A DNA stretch of 64,000 bases from an uncultured Chloroflexia bacterium. Lineage in GTDB: Bacteria > Chloroflexota > Anaerolineae > Anaerolineales > UBA4823. Below, in pieces: positions 9,375 to 60,498 of this stretch (positions within the stretch are counted from its first letter, which is position 1; the number at the start of each line of letters is the position of its first letter). A model generated the notes under the pieces. The model did no database searches. It saw nothing but the letters and a program-made list of their open reading frames with translations, and was not told the origin of the DNA. The translations under genes and the position numbers were made by a program. The stretch spans positions 195,479-259,478 of the forward strand of contig CAWBYY010000004.1 in the NCBI GenBank assembly GCA_963793095.1. The letters are read 5' to 3'.

Positions 9375-9773
9375 GGGGATGAAAGGTCTCGACGGGAGAG
9401 GCTGGCCCCGGATTGCGAGCCGAGAGGCGCCGATCTCGTAAAATCAGCGCAAACAAAAAGTGCCAATCGCACTGAATACGCTGCTCTCCCGCTTGCTGCA
9501 TAAGCGAGCCTAGGAGCGCATGATCCTCAAAGTAGGGTCACGTCCTCTTGCTCCGAACTCCGATCGGGAGCAGATGCAGGGCGACAAAAAGATTGGAGTG
9601 CTGCACGTCCATATCGCTAAACGTGAATAAGAGAAGCTTTCGGGCTTCAGCGGTTAGCCAACCGGCTTCCTTTGTTGGTCCGGGGCTGGCAGGCGAATAA
9701 CACAGATCAACTACGCTCGTAGATATCCGAGGGACGAATCTTTCGGACTCGGTTCGATTCCCGACATCTCCAC
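9375..9773 (+). ncRNA. ssrA: tmRNA (SsrA); tag reading frame GCC...TAA at 9462-9503 encodes ANRTEYAALPLAA
   Basis: 5' GGGGATG pairs with 3' CATCTCC (G3:U pair), followed by discriminator A. T-arm GGTTCGATTCCCGAC. The resume region resembles the E. coli layout (CTCGTAAAA...GCAAA...GCC). CCA is not encoded. Confidence 0.9.
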
Positions 9774-9775
9774 TA

Positions 9776-18992: not shown

Positions 18993-19865
18993 ATGATAAG
19001 AGAATATTTATCAACGCCTAGGATCAGACTCGGAATCCAGCGTTTCGGTTATATATTTCTCACACTAATCGCTGCAGCCACGTTGATCCCGGTTTTAGCT
19101 ATCGTAGTTCATATTTTTATCGAGGGGATTTCTACAATAACATGGGATTTCCTTACAGGTTATCCCAGGGATGGGATGCGAGCTGGCGGTATCTTCCCTG
19201 CAATAATTGGAACTCTATTGTTGACAATAGGAACAGCATTGTTTTCTATTCCGATTAGTCTCGGTGCTGCAATTTATCTTGCTGAATACGCACCCGATAA
19301 CCGCTGGACCAGAATGATCAGGATCGCAATAATAAATTTAGCAGGGATACCATCAGTAGTTTATGGATTATTTGGATTAGGCCTTTTTGTTATTTTTCTA
19401 CAATTTGGTACAAGCATATTGGCTGGTTGTCTTACACTTTCTATTATGACTTTACCGGTTTTTATCAGCACAGCTGAAGAGGCTATGCGAACGGTTCCAA
19501 GATCTTTCCGAGTTGTCAGCATTTCTTTAGGCGCCAGCCAATGGCAGACTATTAGGCGTATTGTCCTTCCTCAAGCACAACCTGGAATTTTAACTGGTAT
19601 CATCCTTGGTTTAGAAAGAGCAGTTGGTGAAACAGCGCCAATATTATTTACCACGGCAGCATTTTTCCTGCCTCAATTGCCAAATTCTCCTTTTGATGCA
19701 ACTATGGCCCTACCTTATCATCTGTTTGTGATTTCTACCCAAATTCCCGGAATGCCATTAAATCTTCAATATGGAACTGCTCTTGTATTGCTGTTATTCA
19801 TCCTTGGTATGAATATTCTCGCTACAATCATCAGGTCAAAAGCACGTGCCAAGCGCCAATGGTGA
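18993..19865 (+). CDS. pstA: Phosphate ABC transporter permease PstA
   Basis: SLGASQWQTIRRIVLPQA loop; position in the operon. Confidence 0.85.
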   Translation: MIREYLSTPRIRLGIQRFGYIFLTLIAAATLIPVLAIVVHIFIEGISTITWDFLTGYPRDGMRAGGIFPAIIGTLLLTIGTALFSIPISLGAAIYLAEYAPDNRWTRMIRIAIINLAGIPSVVYGLFGLGLFVIFLQFGTSILAGCLTLSIMTLPVFISTAEEAMRTVPRSFRVVSISLGASQWQTIRRIVLPQAQPGILTGIILGLERAVGETAPILFTTAAFFLPQLPNSPFDATMALPYHLFVISTQIPGMPLNLQYGTALVLLLFILGMNILATIIRSKARAKRQW

Positions 19866-19882
19866 CTGAATAAATTGCTATT

Positions 19883-20653
19883 ATGGAAAAACTAATAATT
19901 GAGGGGTTAAATCTTAAATATTCAGATGGCGTGGAAGCTTTACGCAATGTTAATATGAAAATTCCAGCCAACAGAATTACAGTAATTTTCGGACCTTCGG
20001 GTGGTGGAAAATCATCATTATTACGTGTAATTAATCGGTTAAACGATTTAACTGATGTCGCTAGTGTAACAGGAAAAGTAATGTTGGCGGACGAATATAA
20101 TCAACTCACAAATATTTTAGATCCGAATATAAATGTCATCAACTTACGCAGAAGGATCGGTATGGTTTTCGCAAGACCTGTGGTTCTTCCCCTGGATATT
20201 CGCAGCAATATCACATTTAGCCTGGAAATGTCAGGAGTCAAGGAAAAGAATAGGCTTGATACGAGCGTTGAATCGGTTCTAAGGCAAGCAGCCTTGTGGG
20301 ATGAAGTCAAATCGCGTTTAGATGAACCTGCCATTGCGCTCTCAGGTGGTCAACAACAACGCCTCTGCTTAGCTCGCAGTCTAGCTCTCGAACCAGAGTT
20401 GATTCTTCTTGATGAACCAACCTCCGGTCTGGACCCCATATCTACAGGATATATAGAAGCCACGTTACAGACTTTAAAGCAACAATATACAATAATATTG
20501 GTTCCCCATTCAGTTCAGCAAGCAGCACGAACTGCAGATTATGCCGCATACTTTTTACAGGGTGAATTAATTGAACATGGTCCTGGCGATAATCTCTTTA
20601 TTAATCCTCAGGATGAACGTACATCTAATTATATTGAAGGTCGTTTTGGATAA
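19883..20653 (+). CDS. pstB: Phosphate ABC transporter ATP-binding protein, divergent second PstB
   Basis: GPSGGGKSS, LSGGQQQRLCLAR, LLDEPTSGLDP, C-terminal YIEGRFG. Clearly more diverged than the copy at 16187-16955. Confidence 0.8.
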   Translation: MEKLIIEGLNLKYSDGVEALRNVNMKIPANRITVIFGPSGGGKSSLLRVINRLNDLTDVASVTGKVMLADEYNQLTNILDPNINVINLRRRIGMVFARPVVLPLDIRSNITFSLEMSGVKEKNRLDTSVESVLRQAALWDEVKSRLDEPAIALSGGQQQRLCLARSLALEPELILLDEPTSGLDPISTGYIEATLQTLKQQYTIILVPHSVQQAARTADYAAYFLQGELIEHGPGDNLFINPQDERTSNYIEGRFG

Positions 20654-20681
20654 TTAAAGAAAGTTTCTCAGGAGGTAATTA

Positions 20682-21374
20682 ATGTCCTCAAGAGTTCAAT
20701 TGGATAAAAAGATCCGCCATTTACTGGACGAAATCTTGATAATGAACAGTATGGTAGAAAATGCAACTCTGGAAGCCATAAACGCATTAAAAAACCGCGA
20801 TACTGATCTGGCGTTGAACGTTTATAGGAACGATAGTATGATCAATGATAAACGTTTTAAATTAGAAAATGACATTATTGTCACCATCGCAACGGTCCAA
20901 CCTATTATGGCGGGAGATTTACGTTTAATAGCTTCAATCTTGGAAATTGTTGGCGAGCTAGAAAGGATGGGCGATTATGCAAAAGGCATCGCTAAGATCT
21001 GCCTGAAAATCGGATCTCAGCCCCATGTAAAACCGCTTATTGACATTCCCCGAATGGCAGATATAGCGGTAGATATGCTGCACAGAGCAATCGGAGCATT
21101 TGTAGAACAGGATTCCGAGACAGCCAGTTTAATTCCCCAAGATGATCAACAAGTGGATGCTTTATACAACCAGGTGTATCGTGAGCTTGTAACCGTGATG
21201 TTGGCTAATCCTGCAACAATAGACCGTGCTAATATGCTCATGTGGGCTGCCCATAACCTCGAACGAATGGCTGACCGTGTTACTAACATTTGCGAGAGGA
21301 CCATTTTCGTTGCAACAGGTGACCTTATAGAACTAGCCGCATCCGATGATGAATTTAAAATTGATGAAGAATAA
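20682..21374 (+). CDS. phoU: Phosphate signalling complex protein PhoU
   Basis: Two PhoU repeats (ELERMGDYAKGIA and NLERMADRVTNICE). Confidence 0.9.
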   Translation: MSSRVQLDKKIRHLLDEILIMNSMVENATLEAINALKNRDTDLALNVYRNDSMINDKRFKLENDIIVTIATVQPIMAGDLRLIASILEIVGELERMGDYAKGIAKICLKIGSQPHVKPLIDIPRMADIAVDMLHRAIGAFVEQDSETASLIPQDDQQVDALYNQVYRELVTVMLANPATIDRANMLMWAAHNLERMADRVTNICERTIFVATGDLIELAASDDEFKIDEE

Positions 21375-21398
21375 CCATTCCTTCCTAAATTCTATTAG

Positions 21399-21429
21399 TC
21401 TGTGCATTATCTTATGCACAGATTTTTTT
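21399..21429 (+). terminator. Intrinsic terminator after phoU
   Basis: TCTGTGCAT-TATCTT-ATGCACAGA followed by T7. Confidence 0.7.
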
Positions 21430-21520: not shown

Positions 21521-21889
21521 ATGGATGTAATTAAGATTATCCTTTATATTGCAGCGGCGATATTAATATTTTTTGGGGTTCTATTTATATGGGGCGCTTT
21601 CGGTCCAGAAGGTTCAACAGGTTGGATACCTGTGGGAATCATCAGTGTGGCGATTGGATTTGGTTTAATCTGGTTAGGGAGTCGCAGAGCTAGGCAATCT
21701 GAGGCTGAAGGTTCTTCTATAACTTACCAGGTCGACCTGCCAGGTAATATCGAACTCGATCAATTCAGCTGTAAATCATGTGGCGGGGCTTTAAAAACCG
21801 ACAATATTGAGATGGTTGCTGGAGCGCCGGTAGTCAATTGCCCATATTGTGGTACTTCATACCAGTTAAGTGAAGAACCAAAATGGTGA
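21521..21889 (+). CDS. Two-TM membrane protein with a C-terminal CxxC...CxxC zinc ribbon
   Basis: Two hydrophobic helices, then CKSCGG ... CPYCG. AAGGAAGCGAGG ribosome binding site. First gene after the phoU terminator. Confidence 0.5.
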   Translation: MDVIKIILYIAAAILIFFGVLFIWGAFGPEGSTGWIPVGIISVAIGFGLIWLGSRRARQSEAEGSSITYQVDLPGNIELDQFSCKSCGGALKTDNIEMVAGAPVVNCPYCGTSYQLSEEPKW

Positions 21890-21956
21890 CCTTCCGGTTG
21901 TTAGAACATTTGACCATTCATAAATAATTTAGAATATTCATCTTGCTGGAGTGCTT

Positions 21957-22637
21957 ATGAAAAAGTTATTCGTCAGCATGGTTGTTTTGAGCATTATCTT
22001 GGTTATCCCGATTCAAGTTGCCGCTCAAACGTATCTTTTCAGCCTGGATAAGTTGGATGTACATGTATTTATAGATGAGGATGGAACATATGCAATCGAC
22101 TACATTCTGGTTTTTACAAATAATCCGGCTGCTTCTCCGATCGATTTTATAGATCTTGGCTTACCAAATCCCAATTTTGATATAAACCTGATCAGCGCTG
22201 AAATCAATGGGACACCCGTGGCGGATATTTCCAAAGGAGACTATCAGGGCACCGGATCCGGCGTTGCGCTTGCTCTGGCGCAGGATTCAATTCAACCCGG
22301 AGATTCGGGAGAGGTTCATGTATATATCGAAGGTGTCAGGAGAGTGTTGTATCCGGACAGCGAAAATAATGAATACGCCAGCGCTGTATTTTCACCCGTT
22401 TATTTTGGTTCCCAATTTGTAGAGGGCGACACGGATATAACAGTGACATTCCACCTGCCTCCCGGCGTTGAGCCTGATGAACCAAAATGGCATTCAGCTC
22501 CCCAGGGTTTTCCATCTGAACCTGTAACTGGTGTTGATGGTGACGGCAGAATCACTTACACCTGGTCAAATTCACAGGCCTCTGGAGACCAGCAATACAA
22601 ATTTGGAGCTTCTTTCCCATCCAAGATACGTCTCTGA
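21957..22637 (+). CDS. Exported beta-rich protein resembling the DUF2207 N-terminal ectodomain; probably the 5' part of a gene split from 22646-23650
   Basis: Signal peptide (LFVSMVVLSIILVIPIQVAAQ). The Y.F...LDV.V.I.EDGT..I.Y pattern is typical of DUF2207-like ectodomains (from memory). It ends 8 nt before the next ORF, whose frame is open upstream. Confidence 0.5.
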   Translation: MKKLFVSMVVLSIILVIPIQVAAQTYLFSLDKLDVHVFIDEDGTYAIDYILVFTNNPAASPIDFIDLGLPNPNFDINLISAEINGTPVADISKGDYQGTGSGVALALAQDSIQPGDSGEVHVYIEGVRRVLYPDSENNEYASAVFSPVYFGSQFVEGDTDITVTFHLPPGVEPDEPKWHSAPQGFPSEPVTGVDGDGRITYTWSNSQASGDQQYKFGASFPSKIRL

Positions 22638-22645
22638 AGATAGCA

Positions 22646-23650
22646 TTGTCAGATCCGATACAAATTTCCTTAGTCTTCTGGGTATTGGCACTGAAGCGGT
22701 CTGCCCGCAAATATTCTGTTGTGGGTCAATTCTTACTTGTAGCTGGTGGAATTTATCTGTCCTACCGGAATACCAGCAAGAGAAAACTGCAGTATCTCCC
22801 GCCAAAAATTGCAATTGAAGGACATGGAATAAAGCGCGGGCTTACCGCAGTTGAAGCCGCAATTTTATTGGAACAACCGATGGAAAAGATTTTGACCATG
22901 ATTCTTTTTTCAGCAATAAAAAAAGGCGCAGCTGTTGTCGTTGAACAAGATCCCCTTACCTTACAGGTGAGTGATCCGCCTCCGGATGGATTGTATAAGT
23001 ATGAAACCGATTTCCTTGAAGCTATGCAGATGGAGAATAAGCTAGCGCGCAGAAAAGCAATGCAGGATGGGATGATCGACCTTGTAAACAGTGTAGCGAA
23101 AAAAATGAAGGGATTCAGCAGAAATGAGACCATCGCATATTATAAAGATATAGTCAATCGCGCCTGGATCCAGGTTGAAACTGCAGAGACACCTGAAGTG
23201 AAAAGCGAGAAGTTTGAAGAAAATATGGATTGGACCATGCTTGATGAGGAATACGAAGATCGCACCAGAGATATATTCCGAACGGGTCCGGTCTTCATCC
23301 CCACCTGGTGGCCCCGCTATGATCCTGGCTATGGCCAGCATATACCTTCATCACCTAGACCAGCAGGAGCGCCATTACCTTCCACCGGTACACCTGGAGC
23401 TCCTTTGCCGCAGTTACCCGGTTCGGTTTTTGCTGCCTCAATTGTCAACAGTGTTCAGAATTTTTCTAGTGAGGTGGTCGGGAATATTACCGATTTTACC
23501 AATGGAGTGACTCAGAAGACAAACCCGGTCCCTCTCGCAAGCCGGGGACGAGGAGGCAGCGGTCGAAGTTTTTCCAGCGGTGGATGCGCCTGCGCCTGTG
23601 CGTGTGCCTGCGCAGGATGCGCATGTGCCTGCGCTGGCGGCGGCAGGTAG
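22646..23650 (+). CDS. Membrane protein with a DUF2207-like cytoplasmic segment, a Pro-rich region and a C-terminal poly(Cys-Ala) tail
   Basis: TM segment GQFLLVAGGIYLSY, then KRGLTAVEAAILLEQP..., a PRPAGAPLPSTGTPGAPLP stretch, and the ending SSGGCACACACACAGCACACAGGGR. The annotated start is TTG with no ribosome binding site. Confidence 0.55.
   Translation: MSDPIQISLVFWVLALKRSARKYSVVGQFLLVAGGIYLSYRNTSKRKLQYLPPKIAIEGHGIKRGLTAVEAAILLEQPMEKILTMILFSAIKKGAAVVVEQDPLTLQVSDPPPDGLYKYETDFLEAMQMENKLARRKAMQDGMIDLVNSVAKKMKGFSRNETIAYYKDIVNRAWIQVETAETPEVKSEKFEENMDWTMLDEEYEDRTRDIFRTGPVFIPTWWPRYDPGYGQHIPSSPRPAGAPLPSTGTPGAPLPQLPGSVFAASIVNSVQNFSSEVVGNITDFTNGVTQKTNPVPLASRGRGGSGRSFSSGGCACACACACAGCACACAGGGR
23579..23647 (+). 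repeat. Coding low-complexity (TGY-GCN)n tract encoding GG-(CA)5-G-(CA)3-GGGR
   Basis: Read directly: ggt gga tgc gcc tgc gcc tgt gcg tgt gcc tgc gca gga tgc gca tgt gcc tgc gct ggc ggc ggc agg. Synonymous codons are mixed. Confidence 0.9.
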
Positions 23651-23683
23651 GATTCTAAGTTATTGAGAAGGATTAACCCACAG

Positions 23684-25030
23684 ATGAATCGTTTTCTGTC
23701 AAACATTAAAAACCGATTGCGAAATTCACAATCGGATTATGCACAACCAGGTTTGTTTCAGTACCGGAGGGAAAATATAGGTGAATCCTCCAAAATCCAT
23801 CTGCGCGTTGACAGTGATGGTTCTGGCCTTCTCATTGTTAATGCAAATAGGGTTATGCATCTGAATCCAACGGCCGCGTTTATGGCTAGATTATTTTTGG
23901 AAAACACTTCGACTGAAACTTCAATACATTTGATTAAATCCCGTTACAGAACCACTCTCGATGAAGTAAATTCTGATTATATTCAATTTAAGGACCAGAT
24001 AGAGGAATTAATCCGACCAGATGGAGCCTGTCCAATTCATGATCTTAATCTGGAAATAAACCCTCCGTTTCATGTCAAGCCAACTGCTCCATACAGGATG
24101 GATCTTGCGCTTACCTACCGGTGCAACAATGATTGCCCGCATTGTTACAACGCACGCCCCAGGAATTTTATGGAATTAGATACTCAAGAATGGAGGCAGA
24201 TCATCAGTAAACTCTGGGAGATAGGCATTCCCCACATAGTTTTTACTGGAGGTGAGCCCACGTTAAGAGGCGATTTATGTGAATTAATCTCACACGCAGA
24301 GAAGATTGGTCAGATTTCAGGATTAAACACCAATGGTCGCCGGCTTCAGGATAAGGCTTATGTCAGGGATCTGGTAAATGCTGGCCTTGACCATGTCCAG
24401 ATAACCCTGGAATCGCACCATGCCGCTATCCATGATCAAATGGTTGCATCCAGGGGCGCCTGGAATCAAACGGTAGCAGGGATAAAAAATGCCCTTGATA
24501 GCCCGCTTTATGTGATGACCAATACTACCCTCTTACAACCTAACCGCGAAGACCTGGCAGATACTATTAATTTTCTGGCGAAGTTAGGCGTTCCCACTGT
24601 TGGGATGAATGCACTCATCTACTCAGGAAAAGGTAAAAGTGTTCACACTGGGATAGACGAACGGGAATTACAGCCTTTTCTGGAAACCGCCCGTTCACTG
24701 ACACAGAAAAATAATCAAAAATTGATCTGGTACACACCAACTCAATACTGCAATTTTGATCCGGTTCAAATGGAATTAGGTGTAAAAGGTTGCACTGCTG
24801 CCCGCTACAATATGTGCATCGAACCGGATGGCAATGTACTTCCATGCCAATCTTATTACAAAACGCTCGGTAACCTCCTTTTTGATGAATGGGATTCAAT
24901 CTGGAACCATGAACTGGCAGTTACGTTGAGGGAACGAACAAATCTCCCTGACAAATGTTACCAGTGTGCGCTTTTATCTGAATGTGGTGGCGGCTGCCCA
25001 CTATATCATCAACATCTCAAAAACAACTGA
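23684..25030 (+). CDS. Radical SAM/SPASM domain enzyme with an N-terminal PqqD/RRE-like domain
   Basis: CNNDCPHC (CxxxCxxC, 24122-24145), GIPHIVFTGGEPTLR, and SPASM cysteines (CIEPDGNVLPC ... CYQCALLSECGGGC). The N-terminal roughly 110 aa resemble a PqqD-like peptide-binding domain. ATG at 23684 has a GAGAAGGA ribosome binding site. Confidence 0.85.
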   Translation: MNRFLSNIKNRLRNSQSDYAQPGLFQYRRENIGESSKIHLRVDSDGSGLLIVNANRVMHLNPTAAFMARLFLENTSTETSIHLIKSRYRTTLDEVNSDYIQFKDQIEELIRPDGACPIHDLNLEINPPFHVKPTAPYRMDLALTYRCNNDCPHCYNARPRNFMELDTQEWRQIISKLWEIGIPHIVFTGGEPTLRGDLCELISHAEKIGQISGLNTNGRRLQDKAYVRDLVNAGLDHVQITLESHHAAIHDQMVASRGAWNQTVAGIKNALDSPLYVMTNTTLLQPNREDLADTINFLAKLGVPTVGMNALIYSGKGKSVHTGIDERELQPFLETARSLTQKNNQKLIWYTPTQYCNFDPVQMELGVKGCTAARYNMCIEPDGNVLPCQSYYKTLGNLLFDEWDSIWNHELAVTLRERTNLPDKCYQCALLSECGGGCPLYHQHLKNN

Positions 25031-25086
25031 TATTCCAGTATTGTTTTAACTGAAATCGATCTAACCAATTAAATCTGGGACGGAAA

Positions 25087-26241
25087 ATGCAAAGAATAAC
25101 CAAATCCTTTAAGAAATCAATATCTCCTGAAAAAATTGTTCAACCCGGGATTTACCAGTATCTATCACCTGCTGATGATCCTAGAAATTACCGACTGCAC
25201 TTAAGGATCGAGGTGGATGGGAATGGAATCCTGATAATTAATGCCAGCACAATCCTGCATTTAAACACGACCGCAACAGAATATGCCTATTTTCTGATAA
25301 AGAATACATCTCCAGAAATTGTAGCAAAAGAAATCTCCAGAAGGTATAAAGTTCAACCTTCTACTGCCAAAAGAGATTATCTTGATCTATCTGAAAGGAT
25401 TCAGGATCTTATAAATACACCTGATCTTGATCCTGTTTCTTTTCTGGATATGGAGCGGATTTTGCCATATAGTGGACATATCTCTGCTCCATACAGATTG
25501 GATTGTGCAATAACATATCGCCTGCCAGCATTGGATGACCCGAATTTTGCTCCCTCTGACAGGGTAGGTAAAGAATTGGACACAACAGAATGGTTAAAGA
25601 TTATTGATAAAGCATGGTCAGTTGGTATCCCACATATTGTTTTTACCGGAGGCGAACCAACCCTGAGGGATGATCTTCCGCAGCTTTTACAGCAAACCGA
25701 GAATAATGGCCAGGTGTCAGGATTGCTAACAGATGGCATCCGACTCTCGGAACCTGATTATTTAAATGAATTATTGCTCACAGGATTGGATTATGTGATG
25801 ATTGTTTACAACGACAAAAAAGAAGTAAGGGACGGACTGCAGGCATGTTTGTTGGAAGACTTATTTGTATCGGTTCATTTAACTCTTGCGGAAAATAATT
25901 TAGATGACATTACAAGTTCTATTGAAAATTTTAAATTAATCGGAGTAAAGGGAATTTCCCTCAGTGCCCAGACCCAAAACCTGGCTCCCCAGCTTGAAAA
26001 TCTTCGCAATAAGATAGCTGAGCATCAGCTTGATTTGATATGGAACCTTCCGGTCCCATATTCATCATTTAATCCAGTAAAATTTGAAACAAATTACAGG
26101 GGAAAAGAATCGGGGGAAGGTAGTGGCTGGCTTTATATAGAACCTGATGGAGATGTTTTACCTGCTCAGGGAATAAATCAGGTTCTGGGTAATTTCCTTA
26201 AGGATGATTGGAGGACTATCTGGAAAGGGCATTCTGATTGA
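25087..26241 (+). CDS. Pseudo-radical-SAM paralog lacking the CxxxCxxC and SPASM cysteines
   Basis: Collinear with the previous protein, including an identical GIPHIVFTGGEPTLR. LPALDDPN replaces CNNDCPHC and LPAQ replaces LPCQ. It ends before the CxxCx5Cx3C block and has only 2 Cys in 384 aa. Confidence 0.7.
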   Translation: MQRITKSFKKSISPEKIVQPGIYQYLSPADDPRNYRLHLRIEVDGNGILIINASTILHLNTTATEYAYFLIKNTSPEIVAKEISRRYKVQPSTAKRDYLDLSERIQDLINTPDLDPVSFLDMERILPYSGHISAPYRLDCAITYRLPALDDPNFAPSDRVGKELDTTEWLKIIDKAWSVGIPHIVFTGGEPTLRDDLPQLLQQTENNGQVSGLLTDGIRLSEPDYLNELLLTGLDYVMIVYNDKKEVRDGLQACLLEDLFVSVHLTLAENNLDDITSSIENFKLIGVKGISLSAQTQNLAPQLENLRNKIAEHQLDLIWNLPVPYSSFNPVKFETNYRGKESGEGSGWLYIEPDGDVLPAQGINQVLGNFLKDDWRTIWKGHSD

Positions 26242-27044
26242 CCCCAACTTTAACCGAATGGCATAATCGTTTCCGGCAGCAAGCCGGGTGGACCGCTGCA
26301 GTCAGGGAATATCTCTTCAATAGAATACCGGATTATTCCAATTTAAAAATCCTTGAAGTGGGAAGCGGAACAGGGGCGGTACTGGGACACTTTAGGGATG
26401 AAATCATAAATTCAAACCCAAATAATTTTACTGGCATGCAAAGCGCAAATCTGGTTGGGGTCGATATAAATCAAGAATTCCTTGCATTCGCAAAGGTTCA
26501 TTACCCATTTGTTTTTTATACTTTAGCCGATGGAATTACATTACCGTTCAATGACAATACATTTGACCTATCTTATACCCATTTTTTTCTGATGTGGTTG
26601 AGTGAACCTGTTAAAGTTCTCAAGGAGATTGTAAGAGTAACGAAACCAGGTTGTCCTGTACTCTCACTTGCAGAACCTGATTATGGCGGTCGAATTGATT
26701 ATCCCGATGATTTTAAGCCAATTTCAAAAGCGCAGAGTAATTCTCTTCAAATGCAAGGCGCAGATCCCTTCTTTGGCCGGAAATTAACTGCACACTTGGT
26801 CAAGGCAGGCCTGGTGGATATTGAAACCGGTGTATTGGGGGGAAATTGGAATAGAACGGAATTGATAAAAGATTTCAAAATTGAATGGCAATTTTTAATC
26901 TCAGATTTGCAAATGGTCAATTCAGATTTAGATTTGGAAGCGTTTCGTTTGAAAGAAGAAAAGTACCGCCAGGAAGGAGAGCGGGTATTATTCGTTCCCA
27001 CTTTTTATGCATCCGGTAAGAAACCGGATAGAGTCGCGACTTAG
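26238..27044 (+). CDS. Class I SAM-dependent methyltransferase
   Basis: ILEVGSGTGAV motif I and a downstream acidic loop. Its TTG start overlaps the previous stop (TTGA). Confidence 0.75.
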   Translation: MTPTLTEWHNRFRQQAGWTAAVREYLFNRIPDYSNLKILEVGSGTGAVLGHFRDEIINSNPNNFTGMQSANLVGVDINQEFLAFAKVHYPFVFYTLADGITLPFNDNTFDLSYTHFFLMWLSEPVKVLKEIVRVTKPGCPVLSLAEPDYGGRIDYPDDFKPISKAQSNSLQMQGADPFFGRKLTAHLVKAGLVDIETGVLGGNWNRTELIKDFKIEWQFLISDLQMVNSDLDLEAFRLKEEKYRQEGERVLFVPTFYASGKKPDRVAT

Positions 27045-27388
27045 GTTTTTAGAAATCCAATTTCTATATTATTATTTCGAATCCTGACAGGATAAGCGCA
27101 AATATCTATTACAGCCGGCAAAGATACTGCCTTCCCAGTCCGGATATCAAAACGGGCTCCGTGGCGTGGGCATATTATGTTGTCTCCTTCCAGATCACCC
27201 TCACCCAGAGGGCCATCATCATGGCTGCAAATGTCATCTACGGCGAAGTAATCGCCATTTATCCTGAACAATACAATCTGTTTATCATCAACTTCAAGAA
27301 ATAGTCTTTCCCCTTCATTTATCTCACCAATTGAACAAATTTCAATAAATTCGAAAGTATCAGGGTCATATTTAGTATCATCAAGCAT
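27041..27388 (-). CDS. Rieske [2Fe-2S] ferredoxin domain protein
   Basis: CSHDDGPL ... CPRHGARF motif. Last gene of the suf operon. Confidence 0.8.
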   Translation of the reverse strand: MLDDTKYDPDTFEFIEICSIGEINEGERLFLEVDDKQIVLFRINGDYFAVDDICSHDDGPLGEGDLEGDNIICPRHGARFDIRTGKAVSLPAVIDICAYPVRIRNNNIEIGFLKT

Positions 27389-27436
27389 AATTGTTTACTA
27401 TTTTTCAGAAAATGACCTTATAGTTTGGATTTCCGT

Positions 27437-27823
27437 TCATTCACCAATACTTTCACCAACACCATAAATGCCAGCTTTGAGGACCTTCAATGAAAGTAAG
27501 GCACATTTTATACGTGCTGGTCCTAATTCTAGACCCAGCATTTCAAGTAAATCCTCTTTTGTATACTCTTTAATTTCTTCCAGCGATTTTCCCTGGATGG
27601 ATTCAACAAGCAGATCTGCGGATGCCTGTGATATCGCGCATCCATAGCCGTCAAATGCTGCATCAGTAACAACACCTTCTTCATCTATGCGCAAATCTAT
27701 CCTTATGTGATCTCCGCACAGCGGATTGTCATCTTCAAAGGATATATCGTGTGGATCTAATTCCCCCTTAAATTGTGGGTTTTTATAACGGTCAATGATG
27801 ATTTCTCTGTATAAATCTTCCAT
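27437..27823 (-). CDS. sufU: SUF system Fe-S scaffold, SufU/NifU-like
   Basis: NPLCGD, GCAIS and a C-terminal RIKCALL motif. Confidence 0.8.
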   Translation of the reverse strand: MEDLYREIIIDRYKNPQFKGELDPHDISFEDDNPLCGDHIRIDLRIDEEGVVTDAAFDGYGCAISQASADLLVESIQGKSLEEIKEYTKEDLLEMLGLELGPARIKCALLSLKVLKAGIYGVGESIGE

Positions 27824-27857
27824 GTTTTAATTTTAATAATTATTTTTTGTCGGTAAT

Positions 27858-29123
27858 TTATATTCCGAATATATCTAGCACCGAATATAATCCTTCAGCC
27901 AGTTTATCAATTTCATCCCTTGTATTGTACAGGTAGAAACTTGCCCGCGCTGACGCAGGTATGTTCAATTTTTGATGCAGAGGCATAGCGCAGTGATGAC
28001 CAGCTCTTATGGCAATTCCTTCATTGTCCAATATCTGGGCGATATCATGCGGGTGCGAACCACTCATAGTAAAAGATACAACACCCCCTTTTTGCCTGGC
28101 ATCTGGACCATAGATTTTCAAACCGGGGACTTCAGTTAACCGCTCAATCGCATAACTTACAATATCCTGTTCGTGCTCAAAGATCTTTTCCATTCCGATT
28201 GATCCTAGATAATCAACTGCAGCGCCAAAACCAACCACTTCCGCAATTGCCGGGGTTCCGGCTTCAAATTTATATGGCAGGTCGTTTGCAGAGAATTCCC
28301 GCAACTTCACTTGCTTTATCATGTCCCCGCCTCCCAGGAATGGAGGCATCTTTTCCAGTAAATCCCGTTTACCGTATAAAACGCCAATTCCACTGGGTCC
28401 GCACATTTTATGCCCTGAAAATGCCAAAAAATCCATATCCAAGGCCTGAACATCCACAGGGAAATGCGGTACTGACTGGGCTCCATCGACAATGGTTGTT
28501 GCTCCAGCATTGCGAGCCATTTGTATTATTTCAGAGGCAGGAGTGACCGTTCCAAGTACATTTGACATTTGTGTGAAGCTAACCGCTTTCGGATTTAATT
28601 TCAACAGCTGTTCATATTCTTCAAGATCAAGCAGCCCTTCTTCTGTTACCGTGATGAACTCCAAATTTATATCGATAAATTCGGACAACAACTGCCATGG
28701 AACCAGGTTCGAATGGTGTTCCATCTCGGTCAAAATTACAGTATCACCCGGTTTCAAATTTGTTCGGCCCCAACTTTGAACGATCAAATTTATAGATTCA
28801 GTAGTATTACGGGTGAATATGATTTGTTCTGGTGATGGGGAATTGATAAATTCAGAAATTTTATTTCGGGCGCTTTCATATTGCTCAGTAGCATCCTCCG
28901 CCAGTTTATGGATTCCGCGGTGAATATTGGCATATGAATTTTTATAGAGGTGATCCATTGCATCCAGAACCTGTTCAGGTTTTTGACTCGTCGCAGCTGA
29001 ATCAAGATAAACCAGTGGGACACCTGGTTTTATATCCAGTGCCAGGATTGGAAAGTCTTTTCGGTAGCGGAGAAAATTAGAATCATTATCAGCGTGTGAT
29101 GTAAGTATCATAAAGTCTTCCAA
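27858..29123 (-). CDS. sufS: Cysteine desulfurase SufS (class II)
   Basis: HHSNLVPW, SGHKMCGPSGIGVLYG (PLP Lys) and RAGHHCA (active-site Cys). Confidence 0.9.
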   Translation of the reverse strand: MEDFMILTSHADNDSNFLRYRKDFPILALDIKPGVPLVYLDSAATSQKPEQVLDAMDHLYKNSYANIHRGIHKLAEDATEQYESARNKISEFINSPSPEQIIFTRNTTESINLIVQSWGRTNLKPGDTVILTEMEHHSNLVPWQLLSEFIDINLEFITVTEEGLLDLEEYEQLLKLNPKAVSFTQMSNVLGTVTPASEIIQMARNAGATTIVDGAQSVPHFPVDVQALDMDFLAFSGHKMCGPSGIGVLYGKRDLLEKMPPFLGGGDMIKQVKLREFSANDLPYKFEAGTPAIAEVVGFGAAVDYLGSIGMEKIFEHEQDIVSYAIERLTEVPGLKIYGPDARQKGGVVSFTMSGSHPHDIAQILDNEGIAIRAGHHCAMPLHQKLNIPASARASFYLYNTRDEIDKLAEGLYSVLDIFGI

Positions 29124-29162
29124 TTCCCTGTCAGTATAAATTAATAAGCACAGATGTATATC

Positions 29163-29447
29163 TTATATGGTTTGTCTTTTTCTCTTACGACGAAGAGGTC
29201 TGCGCAAATTTTGTGAATCTTTTGGACACCACAATACATGATCTGGAACCATCCAGCCATCAGTGAGGTAAACGTTTTCTTTAAATTGGACTGCGATCAT
29301 TTTTGGATCAACCTGTACTACTGTGCCTTCCAACCAATCACGAATTCGATCGGTGTTATCTTCGTGATCGCAATACACCTCAACTCGATCGCCGACTTTG
29401 AAACCTCTTTCTTCATCTGGATCTCTAGTAAAAAAAACTCCTGACAA
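29163..29447 (-). CDS. Small hypothetical protein with a basic tail, embedded in the suf operon
   Basis: 94 aa with an SH3/Tudor-like look (GDRVEVY...GTVVQV) and a C-terminal RRPLRRKRKRQ. Preceded by a 189-nt AT-rich gap. Confidence 0.4.
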   Translation of the reverse strand: MSGVFFTRDPDEERGFKVGDRVEVYCDHEDNTDRIRDWLEGTVVQVDPKMIAVQFKENVYLTDGWMVPDHVLWCPKDSQNLRRPLRRKRKRQTI

Positions 29448-29636
29448 TTTCTTCTCCTTATTTATAGTGCTTTTTATTTTTATAGTATCCCAACCAGTTC
29501 AAATTTAAGGATTCCCCACTTAAATTTTTATTTTTTTCTACTAATACACCGCAGTTGTGAAGGATAGATGTAATATTTTACTTTATCTGAGGTACAGTTC
29601 AAATTTTATTCGAAATTAAATTTACATATCAGAAAA

Positions 29637-31001
29637 TTAATAATCTGTCTTTAACCTGATCGCCTCTTGCAGGCGGTTCCGCACTCCTTCGTAAGGAATA
29701 CGCTGCATGATTGGATCAAAGAAACCCTCGATAACCAGTTTCTCAGCATCTTTTTTCGGAATGCCTCTTGTCTCCAGATAAAAAACCTGCTCAGGATCAA
29801 TTTTTCCGACAGTCGCACCATGTGTACAGCGTACATCGTCTGCAAGAATTTCTAAGCCGGGAATTGAATCAGCCCGGGACGACGCATCCAAAATTAGATT
29901 CCGGTTTGCCTGGTAGCCATCTGATTTTTGAGCGCCGGGCGCAACATAAATCATGCCCTGCCACACCGACCTGCTTTTCTCTCGTAATGCTCCTTTAAAG
30001 AGTAAATCACTGGTTGTATCGGGTGCAAAGTGGTTCTGCTGGGTATCATGATCGAGGTGCTGCTCACCATCTGTAAAATAAAAACCTGACATTCTACCTG
30101 TCGAACCTCTGCCAATCAGATCGATATCGGAAAAATTTTTTGTGAGCCGGCTTCCAATTGCGCCAAATATCCAATCGATGCTGGCATCGCGCTCTACTTT
30201 GGCGCGCTCATGGCTGAAATTCCAAACATGTTCTCCCCATGATTGCAATTCCACAAACGCTTAAATTAGAACCGGAACCTACATAAATTTCAACCACACC
30301 TGCATGTAAAGTTGAATGGTCCGGTACGGTCGGGGAGGCAGCCTCGTGCACATAGGTGGCTGATGAACCCTCTTCCAGGTAAACCATCAGATGGGTGAAG
30401 AACGCCAGCTTATCACCCGGACCCCATAAAATACTGTGTAATGGCAACTCAAGATCTACACCTCTTGGAACATAAAGCAAAACACCATTTTGTGAAAGAG
30501 CAGAGGCCAGCGCAGCAAATTTTCCTTCGTCGGATTTGACAATTTCGCCCATAATATTCTTCAGTTTTTCGGGATGCCGTTTCCGGGCTGTATTCAAATC
30601 TGTAAAGATCACTCCTGTCTCTTCAAGTTGCAGGTTGCTGTCGATTTTCACGCCTGTGGGTGTAAATATAATTTGGCCACCGTGTGTGGTTCCCGCAAGA
30701 GGCCGAAGCAATTCTTCCGGTACTGCCGGCAATTCTGATTTCATCAATCTTCTGCAATTCTGGCAGAAGGAAATCCCCTGCAGGTAATGACCTCAAATCG
30801 GTTCTGCGCCATGCTTCTTCCTGGGTGGTAGGTATCGGAATATTGATAAAATCGTTCCAGGCTCTAGCGCGAATATTCTTTAAAAAATTCTGGGGTTTCG
30901 CCGTTCCCCGAGATTGTGGTGAACATTTCCCTGGTAAAGGGAAAATGTTTTTGTACTGATGTTGAACTTTTCTTTCTGGTAATTACTTTCTTATTCGCCA
31001 T
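29637..31001 (-). pseudogene. sufD: Fe-S cluster assembly protein SufD, split by 3 frameshifts as sequenced
   Basis: ATG at 31001 lies 2 nt after the sufB stop. Pieces read in four frames: MANKKV...PEFF / IRARAWNDFINIPIPTTQEEAWRRTDL / ORF 30208-30747 / ORF 29637-30254. Junctions include a T6 run (about 30875) and a TTT run (30255-30257). Confidence 0.8.
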
Positions 31002-60341: not shown

Positions 60342-60347
60342 CTGTAA

Positions 60348-60429
60348 TGCGCTGGGAGGGAGTTGAACCCTCACGCCTTGCGGCACATGGCCCTCAACCA
60401 TGCCTGTCTGCCAATTCCAGCACCAGCGC
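60348..60429 (-). tRNA. tRNA-Leu, anticodon GAG
   Basis: Hand-folded cloverleaf: acceptor GCGCTGG/CCAGCGC, anticodon stem CATGG/CCATG with loop TTGAGGG, a 13-nt variable arm, T-arm GAGGG-TTCAACT-CCCTC, discriminator A. CCA is not encoded. Confidence 0.9.
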
Positions 60430-60498
60430 ATATACTCCGGTATTATAATCTGCCCTTGATCATTGTCAAGAATACCCAATTTTCCATAAGGAGACGCC

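Follow-up and report, generated by a model that had tools for sequence, protein, structure and literature searches.

Enzymes that join a recognition element (RRE) for ribosomally made peptides that are modified after translation (RiPPs) to a radical S-adenosylmethionine (SAM) barrel and a SPASM domain are known for making small secreted peptides and also a few cofactors. What does such an enzyme modify when the gene before it encodes a large membrane protein that ends in a Cys-Ala repeat? This question was raised by a gene cassette in a 64,000-nucleotide stretch of DNA (the window) from an uncultured Chloroflexia bacterium (GenBank assembly GCA_963793095.1, contig CAWBYY010000004.1, positions 195,479 to 259,478). 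A first-pass annotation had proposed an undescribed combination of an RRE-bearing radical SAM/SPASM enzyme (rSAM), a Cys-less paralogue (pseudo-rSAM), a methyltransferase and a protein with a Cys-Ala tail. We followed it up by computational analysis. The cassette is probably an uncharacterised protein-modification system. With somewhat more confidence than doubt, we favoured the explanation that it is a conserved, unnamed protein-maturation module, in which the rSAM would modify the cytoplasmic Cys-Ala tail in cis and the product would stay on the protein. Here a large membrane protein appears to have the machinery of the small peptides dedicated to its C-terminal tail. The system was also new to the sources searched. 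No named-family model of Pfam, NCBIfam or PADLOC reached its cut-off for the system as such, and full-text literature searches, with many subscription-journal papers outside their coverage, gave no description of the tail motif or of the system.

Conservation of the Cys-Ala tail

The tail in the window, GGCACACACACAGCACACAGGGR followed by a stop codon, was encoded at 23579-23650. All 120 top homologues of the protein, which were 54-92% identical overall, ended in CACACAGCACACAGGGR. Full-length family members ended in this tail or in a closely similar one, for example CACACACASCACACAGGGR, or had Val in place of Ala. The variants followed the patterns (CA)2-5-G-(CA)3-4 or (CA)5-6. The residues between the tail Cys were almost always Ala and occasionally Val, and the tail was kept in proteins that were merely 24-30% identical overall. 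The intact tail protein had 4559 relatives (clusters at 90% identity), all of them unnamed and none with a Pfam domain. An exhaustive HMMER search of 1.84 billion representatives gave 1088 family members at E <= 1e-3 (representatives at 50% identity). At this level the family comprises about 1,100 clusters from both prokaryotic domains, without a name in Pfam, NCBIfam or the literature searched.

The last ten residues, CACACAGGGR, were identical across 78 loci, where they were written in 75 distinct DNA versions. Every synonymous codon was used, including CGN and AGR for the terminal Arg. This meant that selection acted on the peptide and not on a DNA repeat. Tandem Repeats Finder reported a period-6 array at 23585-23613, which would fit a tail that is a chance, low-complexity product of TG/CA-rich DNA and has no function. 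However, the codon analysis ruled out a DNA-repeat artefact, and the persistence of the tail in the most distant members also spoke against it. We regarded this explanation as scarcely credible. The invariance across phyla and the selection at the amino-acid level agreed with the earlier choice of the Cys-Ala C-terminus as a Cys-rich candidate substrate.

Linkage of the tail gene to the radical SAM enzyme

One genome per GTDB species was scanned for the tail protein, which gave 74 loci from more than 10 phyla. Most of the loci were from Anaerolineae or other Chloroflexota. The other bacterial loci belonged to Acidobacteriota, Aminicenantes, Hydrogenedentales, Fermentibacteria (Sabulitectum), Planctomycetota, Myxococcota, delta-proteobacteria and Pseudomonadota. 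The archaeal loci belonged to Methanomassiliicoccales, other Thermoplasmatota, Nanoarchaeia, Heimdallarchaeota and Hodarchaeota. The tail protein, a small Zn-ribbon protein and the rSAM were co-located in Chloroflexota, Planctomycetota, Myxococcota, Acidobacteriota, Fermentibacteria, Methanomassiliicoccales, Nanoarchaeia and Heimdallarchaeota. The system reaches beyond Chloroflexota. The six-frame open reading frames (ORFs) of the loci were searched with the window proteins, and two gene orders were found. Order A was Zn-ribbon protein, tail protein and rSAM, with optional pseudo-rSAM and methyltransferase. Order B was Zn-ribbon protein, rSAM, a Cys-poor rSAM-like gene, tail protein and methyltransferase.

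Gene linkage was counted within 6 kb in the 43 loci that had at least 4 kb on each side of the tail gene. The rSAM with its CX3CX2C motif was present in 39/43 loci. The Zn-ribbon protein was present in 35/43, directly upstream of the tail gene or of the rSAM, and Heimdallarchaeota had diverged equivalents in addition to these 35. This small protein with two transmembrane (TM) helices belongs to the core. The Cys-less paralogue was found in 29/43 loci and was absent from the archaeal ones; the methyltransferase was found in 26/43, archaeal loci included. The rSAM, pseudo-rSAM and methyltransferase had been presented at first as a trio. The three genes were linked, but the latter two were frequent accessories and not part of the core. 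In the reverse test, 80 metagenome loci were sampled via the rSAM, and 66 of these had enough upstream sequence. In 64/66, the tail motif with its stop codon was found upstream in the same orientation, and its distance to the rSAM match was mostly 10-142 nt. The conservation of the neighbourhood, which the first-pass annotation had named as a check on its proposal, was seen from both directions, in two gene orders and in bacteria as well as archaea.

In a neighbour-joining tree, the rSAMs grouped by tail type and gene order and not by host, with the exception of L049. The Chloroflexota rSAMs of L052 and L054 and the second rSAM of L064 fell in the order-B clade together with planctomycete and myxobacterial enzymes. 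The tails paired with the L052 and L054 enzymes were of the n+4 type, and the scored tail of L064 belongs to its other, type-I system. In the case of L054 (5043-8824), the tail protein occurred as a tandem pair of paralogues, and both had a (CA)n tail. In the case of L064 (4995-8124), a type-A tail gene with a pseudo-rSAM was accompanied by a second rSAM of the order-B type on the opposite strand.

The tail protein as one gene with a precursor-like C-terminus

The first-pass annotation had listed six same-strand genes. The six ORFs were all found on the + strand at the coordinates given, and the gaps of 67, 8, 33 and 56 nt and the 4-nt overlap were reproduced using the ATG starts at 21957 and 23684. 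The cassette nevertheless had five genes, since the supposed ectodomain protein (ORF2) and membrane protein (ORF3) were one polypeptide. Relatives whose rSAM was 64-69% identical had a single gene of ~560 aa in place of ORF2 and ORF3. Three contigs from independent samples (L005, L006 and L007) had an intact 563-aa tail gene and an rSAM 100% identical to that of the window. The window differed from these near-identical contigs at 45 positions over 5.5 kb, and 37/45 lay inside one divergent patch, which took in the last part of the ectodomain as well as the TM helix (about 22696-22768). Two 1-nt insertions in the window, at about 22619 and about 22735, were both within this patch, and the middle part of the broken gene lay in the third frame at 22531-22818. 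Removing both inserted bases gave a 563-aa ORF that was identical to that of L005 at 549/563 residues. Either an assembly error from mixed strains or a recent inactivation explains the state of the tail gene in this window. The patch itself could represent an assembly of mixed strains, an allele that has recombined or a pseudogene that arose recently.

Profile searches gave zero Pfam or NCBIfam matches for ORF2 and ORF3. A resemblance of the membrane protein to DUF2207 had been suggested earlier, and it was rejected: 0/42 scanned family members matched DUF2207 in Pfam, and the full-length L002 and L004 proteins had no Pfam match at E <= 10. No Pfam family at E <= 0.1 was common to the 42 members.

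The topology prediction for the intact protein gave a signal peptide (residues 1-23), an ectodomain (24-245) and one TM helix (247-270), as in a type-I membrane protein. There were 5 K/R residues after the TM helix and 1 before it. This K/R-rich stretch indicated a cytoplasmic location for the ~290 residues that remain and for the tail, so that the predicted compartment of the tail was the one where rSAM enzymes act. The domain order was signal peptide, beta-sandwich ectodomain, TM helix, cytoplasmic domain, leader-like segment, Gly/Ser linker and (Cys-Ala)n tail. The ectodomain gave a confident beta-sandwich in the AlphaFold2 model (predicted local distance difference test, pLDDT, >90), and its best fold matches were ribophorin I/Ost1 and the N-domain of M1 aminopeptidases. 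Ribophorin I was the best of these (8pn9_E, E = 2.7e-8), with a match confined to the generic beta-sandwich and a root-mean-square deviation of >20 A over the whole chain. Ribophorin I/Ost1 and DUF2207-type proteins share the layout of signal peptide, beta-sandwich ectodomain, single TM helix and cytoplasmic domain. However, none of the 42 members belonged to them at the sequence level, and they have no Cys-Ala tail. A juxtamembrane cytoplasmic module, Y-LPP...G-G-IKRGLT..EAA..LLE.P...LT..LF...KKG, was common to bacterial and archaeal members. An FCCG motif was located inside the single TM helix (window ~22720-22735), and its C254 was invariant in 42 homologues. Six homologues (P0181, P0236, P0237, P0241, P0243 and P0247) were variants of 766-774 aa in which the ectodomain was tandemly duplicated, while the cytoplasmic part and the tail were unchanged.

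The C-terminal ~80 residues resembled a RiPP precursor, with a conserved segment, a Gly/Ser-rich linker and a core. The conserved, leader-like segment is a candidate for the sequence that the RRE domain recognizes. The motif F(T/S)xx(V/I)TxxTNP(V/P)P was common to order-A and archaeal systems, whereas order-B systems had LSGxDxxTG(D/E)xF instead. The leader-like motif therefore co-varied with the rSAM clade, as expected of a recognition sequence. The same layout could also indicate a classical secreted RiPP, whose modified tail is cut off as a small natural product while the membrane protein is a mere carrier or leader. The RiPP-maturase architecture of the enzyme would fit this as well, and so would peptidase genes at a few loci, namely L012 and L046 (M28) and L047 and L080 (an M32 carboxypeptidase nearby). 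However, no further gene family, be it of proteases, exporters, transporters or regulators, was found to recur beside the system across phyla. A classical RiPP cluster has a short precursor and a leader protease and/or exporter, but a 563-aa membrane protein was found here. The 480 residues before the tail were strongly conserved, with an ectodomain and a universal cytoplasmic module that a mere leader would not need. In addition, the core was invariant and not diversified as in most RiPP families. We considered a secreted product quite improbable.

Architecture and family placement of the radical SAM enzyme

ORF4 matched Radical_SAM (PF04055) with 91.7 bits against a threshold of 29.5 and SPASM (PF13186/TIGR04085) with 38.4 bits against 21.5. 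The CX3CX2C motif (CNNDCPHC, residues 154-161) was invariant in 49 homologues. Eight C-terminal Cys (363, 377, 385, 395, 432, 435, 441 and 445), including a CX2CX5CX3C pattern, were all invariant, and the SPASM domain was predicted to hold two auxiliary clusters. The N-terminal PqqD/RRE-like domain named at first was borne out by the family, since PqqD/RRE was detected in 45/49 members with a best E of 1.4e-9. Judged by its domains, the enzyme has the architecture of an RRE-fused RiPP maturase (RRE, radical SAM barrel and SPASM). The AlphaFold2 model of the rSAM had a pLDDT of 74.9. Its best fold matches were SkfB (6efn, E = 1.9e-13), SuiB and CteB (5why), all three of them RiPP maturases, over 411-469 aligned columns, and further matches were PqqE, BlsE and anSME (4k37, E = 1.4e-9). 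The linker that joins the RRE to the barrel, modelled with low confidence, had an additional invariant Cys (C123 in DGACPIH), which belongs to none of the three canonical cluster motifs.

The best NCBIfam matches by E-value were NirJ2, PqqE, GeoRSP and AhbD, and TIGR04347 was also among the matches. Such a list would fit an rSAM pair with a role in cofactor biosynthesis, like that of AhbC/AhbD, NirJ or PqqE, whose adjacency to the tail gene is incidental. The first-pass annotation had stated that its proposal would be refuted by a match to a characterised family, such as AhbD/NirJ, in whose conserved neighbourhoods the tailed protein never occurs. However, the AhbD, NirJ and PqqE models gave 105-134 bits against curated cut-offs of 381-515, and scores 3-5 times below the cut-offs led us to reject this type of enzyme. 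NirJ2 (134/500), AhbD (114/500), AhbC (107.5/650) and NirJ (104.7/515) all remained below the NCBIfam equivalog cut-offs, as did PqqE (TIGR02109, 125.1/381) and mycofactocin MftC (TIGR03962, 88.4/265). The archaeal and planctomycete homologues were likewise below every equivalog cut-off, those for heme and heme d1 rSAMs included. The N-terminal RRE, the tail linkage in bacteria and archaea with two gene orders, and a neighbourhood free of tetrapyrrole or PQQ genes also argued against a cofactor enzyme. We took this explanation to be very improbable.

The peptide-maturase models gave a similar picture. Scores of the window rSAM were 64.7/850 for AlbA, 72.8/300 for SkfB and 87.5/625 for StsB. 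PapB was not among its 25 best families, and the Heimdall homologue of L070 scored 72.5/340 in that model. None of the sactipeptide, ranthipeptide or anSME models of NCBIfam reached its cut-off for the window rSAM. On these profile scores, the rSAM lies outside the AhbD, NirJ, PqqE, MftC, AlbA, SkfB and PapB families. Among the PADLOC defence models, the matches were a viperin-core similarity of the rSAM barrel (58 bits) and a generic methyltransferase match. Since the similarity was limited to the generic viperin core, an anti-phage defence system was rejected.

Accessory proteins

ORF5 was a paralogue of ORF4, with 34% identity over 410 aa. Its Radical_SAM match was weak (39.3 bits), and it had neither a CX3CX2C motif nor more than 2 Cys, none of them at a cluster position. 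The loss of all cluster cysteines described at first was thus confirmed. The RRE-like N-domain and the GGEP SAM-binding motif were retained, and an analogous Cys-poor rSAM-like gene was present in order-B loci. The TIGR04347 pseudo-SAM/SPASM model gave 40.3 bits against a cut-off of 525. TIGR04347 proteins, and PqqD with PqqE, are likewise non-catalytic partners of an rSAM/SPASM enzyme, in which the cluster Cys are lost or an RRE alone is present. In contrast, the pseudo-rSAM of the window arose recently as a paralogue of the very enzyme that it accompanies, and it has retained an RRE.

Two further identifications of the first-pass annotation also held. ORF1 had a zinc ribbon by profile search and two TM helices, and ORF6 was a class I SAM methyltransferase (Methyltransf_11, 59.4 bits). 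The best solved relative of the methyltransferase was LahSB (6uak, E = 1e-10), a lanthipeptide C-terminal carboxyl O-methyltransferase (PMC11285071). This match was limited to the SAM-binding core, and it is a weak lead to the target of the enzyme.

Subclade-specific inserts were a protein of ~335 aa, an M28 peptidase and an alpha/beta hydrolase. The ~335-aa protein, with a hydrophobic C-terminus and no Pfam match, was located in or just after the cassette of a Chloroflexota subclade. Its members were 49-68% identical, and it may be an additional accessory gene. The M28 peptidase was between the rSAM and the pseudo-rSAM (L012, 10018-11121; L046, 7982-9037). The M32 carboxypeptidase was divergent from the Zn-ribbon/tail pair in the rSAM-less loci L047 (4081-5583) and L080 (4013-5515). 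These neighbouring peptidases could reflect C-terminal processing or coincidence.

A model of tail modification and its main rival

The following mechanism was proposed. The substrate would be the type-I membrane protein, whose cytoplasmic C-terminus comprises the leader-like segment, the Gly/Ser linker and the core (Cys-Ala)n...CACACAGGGR-COOH. The rSAM would dock on the leader-like segment via its RRE and direct 5'-deoxyadenosyl radical chemistry at the Cys-Ala core. The most likely product would be several Cys-derived thioether cross-links to neighbouring Ala carbons. The pseudo-rSAM, which keeps the RRE, would probably be a non-catalytic partner or chaperone. The methyltransferase would transfer a methyl group, for which the carboxylate of the invariant C-terminal Arg or a thiol is a possible acceptor, and the 2-TM Zn-ribbon protein would be the membrane partner of the substrate. 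Since neither a protease nor an exporter was conserved with the system, the modified tail would stay on the membrane protein. Thioether formation and the site of methylation are speculative, as is the physiological role. Thioethers were favoured for three reasons. The tail Ala was as invariant as the Cys, with Val alone tolerated, which suggests that Ala is involved in the reaction or has to fit into a narrow active site. Two thioether-forming enzymes were among the closest folds. In addition, thioethers are the product of most SPASM maturases that have been characterised on Cys-rich peptides.

Several points weighed against this model. We infer from gene neighbourhood and architecture that the tail is the substrate of the rSAM. 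The PqqD match of the window rSAM itself was below threshold (20.6 against 23.4 bits in Pfam). Since no sactipeptide, ranthipeptide or anSME model reached its cut-off, the chemistry is not transferable by homology. To our knowledge, the adjacent Cys/Ala spacing is unlike the ring patterns of sactipeptides. The rSAM was not adjacent in L045, L047, L080 and L066, and in the latter three an intact tail was found with no rSAM within 7 kb. An unmodified tail may be functional in such loci, or another part of the genome may encode the enzyme. The strict Cys-x alternation also fits a metal-thiolate site.

The last two points would fit the main rival, in which the tail binds a metal or iron-sulfur, in the manner of a metallothionein or as a carrier of clusters or sulfur. 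The metal site would then be used or loaded by the rSAM, the pseudo-rSAM and the methyltransferase, with no cross-linking. For example, the enzymes could take a cluster or sulfur from the tail, or assemble a metallocofactor on it. Five to seven strictly spaced Cys are a hallmark of thiolate sites, the partner protein is a Zn ribbon, and the Chloroflexota cassette adjoins a suf/NifU/SufS operon. However, the residues between the Cys should vary more in a pure metal site than the near-constant Ala observed here. The suf synteny was lineage-specific and missing in other phyla, the enzyme had the RRE and SPASM layout of a peptide maturase, and the leader-like segment co-varied with the enzyme clade. 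A metal site without cross-linking was therefore judged unlikely, and we retained modification of the tail by the rSAM as the favoured explanation.

Comparison with known systems

By sequence comparison, the system would operate like an RRE-dependent rSAM/SPASM maturase outside every named family. The RRE-bearing sactipeptide and ranthipeptide maturases (SkfB, CteB, AlbA and PapB) have the same RRE-radical SAM-SPASM layout, and SkfB and CteB were top structural matches. Their substrates are also Cys-rich, with a leader segment upstream of the core. However, these substrates are peptides of 30-60 aa, whereas the C-terminus of a 563-aa membrane protein would be modified here. The strict period-2 Cys-Ala core, the absence of a protease or exporter, the Cys-less paralogue and the membrane Zn-ribbon partner were further differences.

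Some SPASM enzymes act on a motif of a large protein and leave the product on it, as do anSME on sulfatases and QhpD on QhpC. The anSME enzymes convert Cys or Ser to formylglycine within the motif C/S-x-P/A-x-R. The tail, which reads ...CACACAGGGR, did not contain C-x-[PA]-x-R. QhpD links Cys to Asp or Glu, neither of which occurs in the tail here. In the FxsB / FXSXX-COOH system of Haft, the presumed target is reportedly a C-terminal motif, as proposed here. The present system differed from anSME, QhpD and FxsB in a membrane-embedded target and a motif that is a repeat, and it did not belong to them at the family level of sequence.

Cys-repeat peptide systems (ACGX, TIGR04340) resembled the cassette in that a short-period Cys repeat is encoded beside a dedicated rSAM/SPASM enzyme; their chemistry is thioether formation or uncharacterised. 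CXXX-repeat and SCIFF are further Cys-repeat peptide systems with rSAM/SPASM enzymes. The rSAM_ACGX family was outside the 25 best families of the window rSAM, and the archaeal and planctomycete homologues scored 55-79 bits against its cut-off of 400. ACGX-type systems have small free peptides, whereas the repeat here has period 2 and is carried on a membrane protein. Compared with the protein-substrate SPASM enzymes, FxsB and the Cys-repeat systems, the cassette stood apart by its integral membrane substrate, period-2 core, Zn-ribbon membrane partner and occurrence in both prokaryotic domains.

If the favoured explanation is true, the substrate scope of peptide maturases widens to integral membrane proteins. 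The strictly periodic, invariant core CACACA-G-CACACA-GGGR would be ideal for mechanistic enzymology, and the rSAM/pseudo-rSAM pair would be a natural one for the study of non-catalytic partners. A conserved uncharacterised component of the cell envelopes of anaerobes, Asgard archaea included, would also have been identified. A bolder proposal goes beyond this. The rSAM might turn the tail into a protein-bound prosthetic group, multiply cross-linked or metal-binding, at the cytoplasmic side of a type-I membrane receptor. This would be a new class of protein-derived cofactor, or of transmembrane device that depends on post-translational modification, and lineages from Chloroflexota and Planctomycetota to Methanomassiliicoccales and Asgard archaea would have inherited it as one module. 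RiPP-type machinery would also, for the first time, be seen to act in cis on an integral membrane protein. We offer this as a tentative possibility. Since Ornatilinea apprima P3M-1 (locus L034) has been cultured and carries the complete five-gene set, the question is directly testable.

The locus and its surroundings

The coordinates of the cassette and of other features are collected in Table 1. A terminator-like hairpin was present after phoU, as had been claimed, and it sets the cassette apart from the pst-phoU operon.

Table 1. Features of the cassette, of the rest of the window and of one insert in related loci. Positions are those of the window unless a locus is named.
Feature	Position	Strand	Remarks
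Terminator-like hairpin 3' of phoU	21397-21424	+	stem of 11 pairs, then T-run
Core gene 1, 2-TM Zn-ribbon membrane protein, 122 aa	21521-21889	+	two N-terminal TM helices, RRAR stretch, cytoplasmic CxxC...CxxC
Core gene 2, tail protein, 563 aa if intact	21957-23650	+	split here: ORFs 21951-22637, 22646-23650
Divergent patch	22424-22801	+	~380 nt, about 10% divergence vs about 0.15% elsewhere; L005, L006 and L007 share the intact allele
Leader-like segment (candidate recognition sequence), LPxLPGSxFAAS...NFSS..VGN..DFT.GVT.KTNPVP	23408-23533	+	residues 484-525 of intact protein; many invariant positions
Core tail, CACACACACAGCACACAGGGR + stop codon	23585-23650	+	proposed modification site
Core gene 3, RRE-radical SAM-SPASM enzyme, 448 aa	23684-25030	+	ATG 23684; longest ORF from TTG 23663
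PqqD-like RRE of core gene 3	about 23834-24004		
C123 of core gene 3	24029-24031		
CX3CX2C of core gene 3	24122-24145		
SPASM region of core gene 3	about 24749-24997		
Accessory pseudo-rSAM, Cys-less rSAM paralogue, 384 aa	25087-26241	+	
Accessory class I SAM methyltransferase, 268 aa	26238-27044	+	start overlaps pseudo-rSAM stop by 4 nt
tmRNA gene	9375-9775	+	Rfam RF00023, 138.6 bits
tRNA-Leu (GAG)	60347-60430	-	sole tRNA of the window
~335-aa protein of Chloroflexota subclade	L009 6254-7258; L010 4219-5232; L013 10382-11413; L046 9389-10489; L018 11757-12773; L019 7966-8979		possible additional accessory gene

The Chloroflexota cassettes were consistently wedged between an upstream pstA/pstB-phoU group and a downstream, convergent Rieske-NifU-SufS-SufD-SufB-SufC operon (window 18993-21374 and 27041-30254; also L002, L004 and L005). 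This synteny probably lacks functional meaning. A functional tie to the pst-phoU or suf operons was rejected, since a terminator follows phoU and such neighbours were absent outside Chloroflexota.

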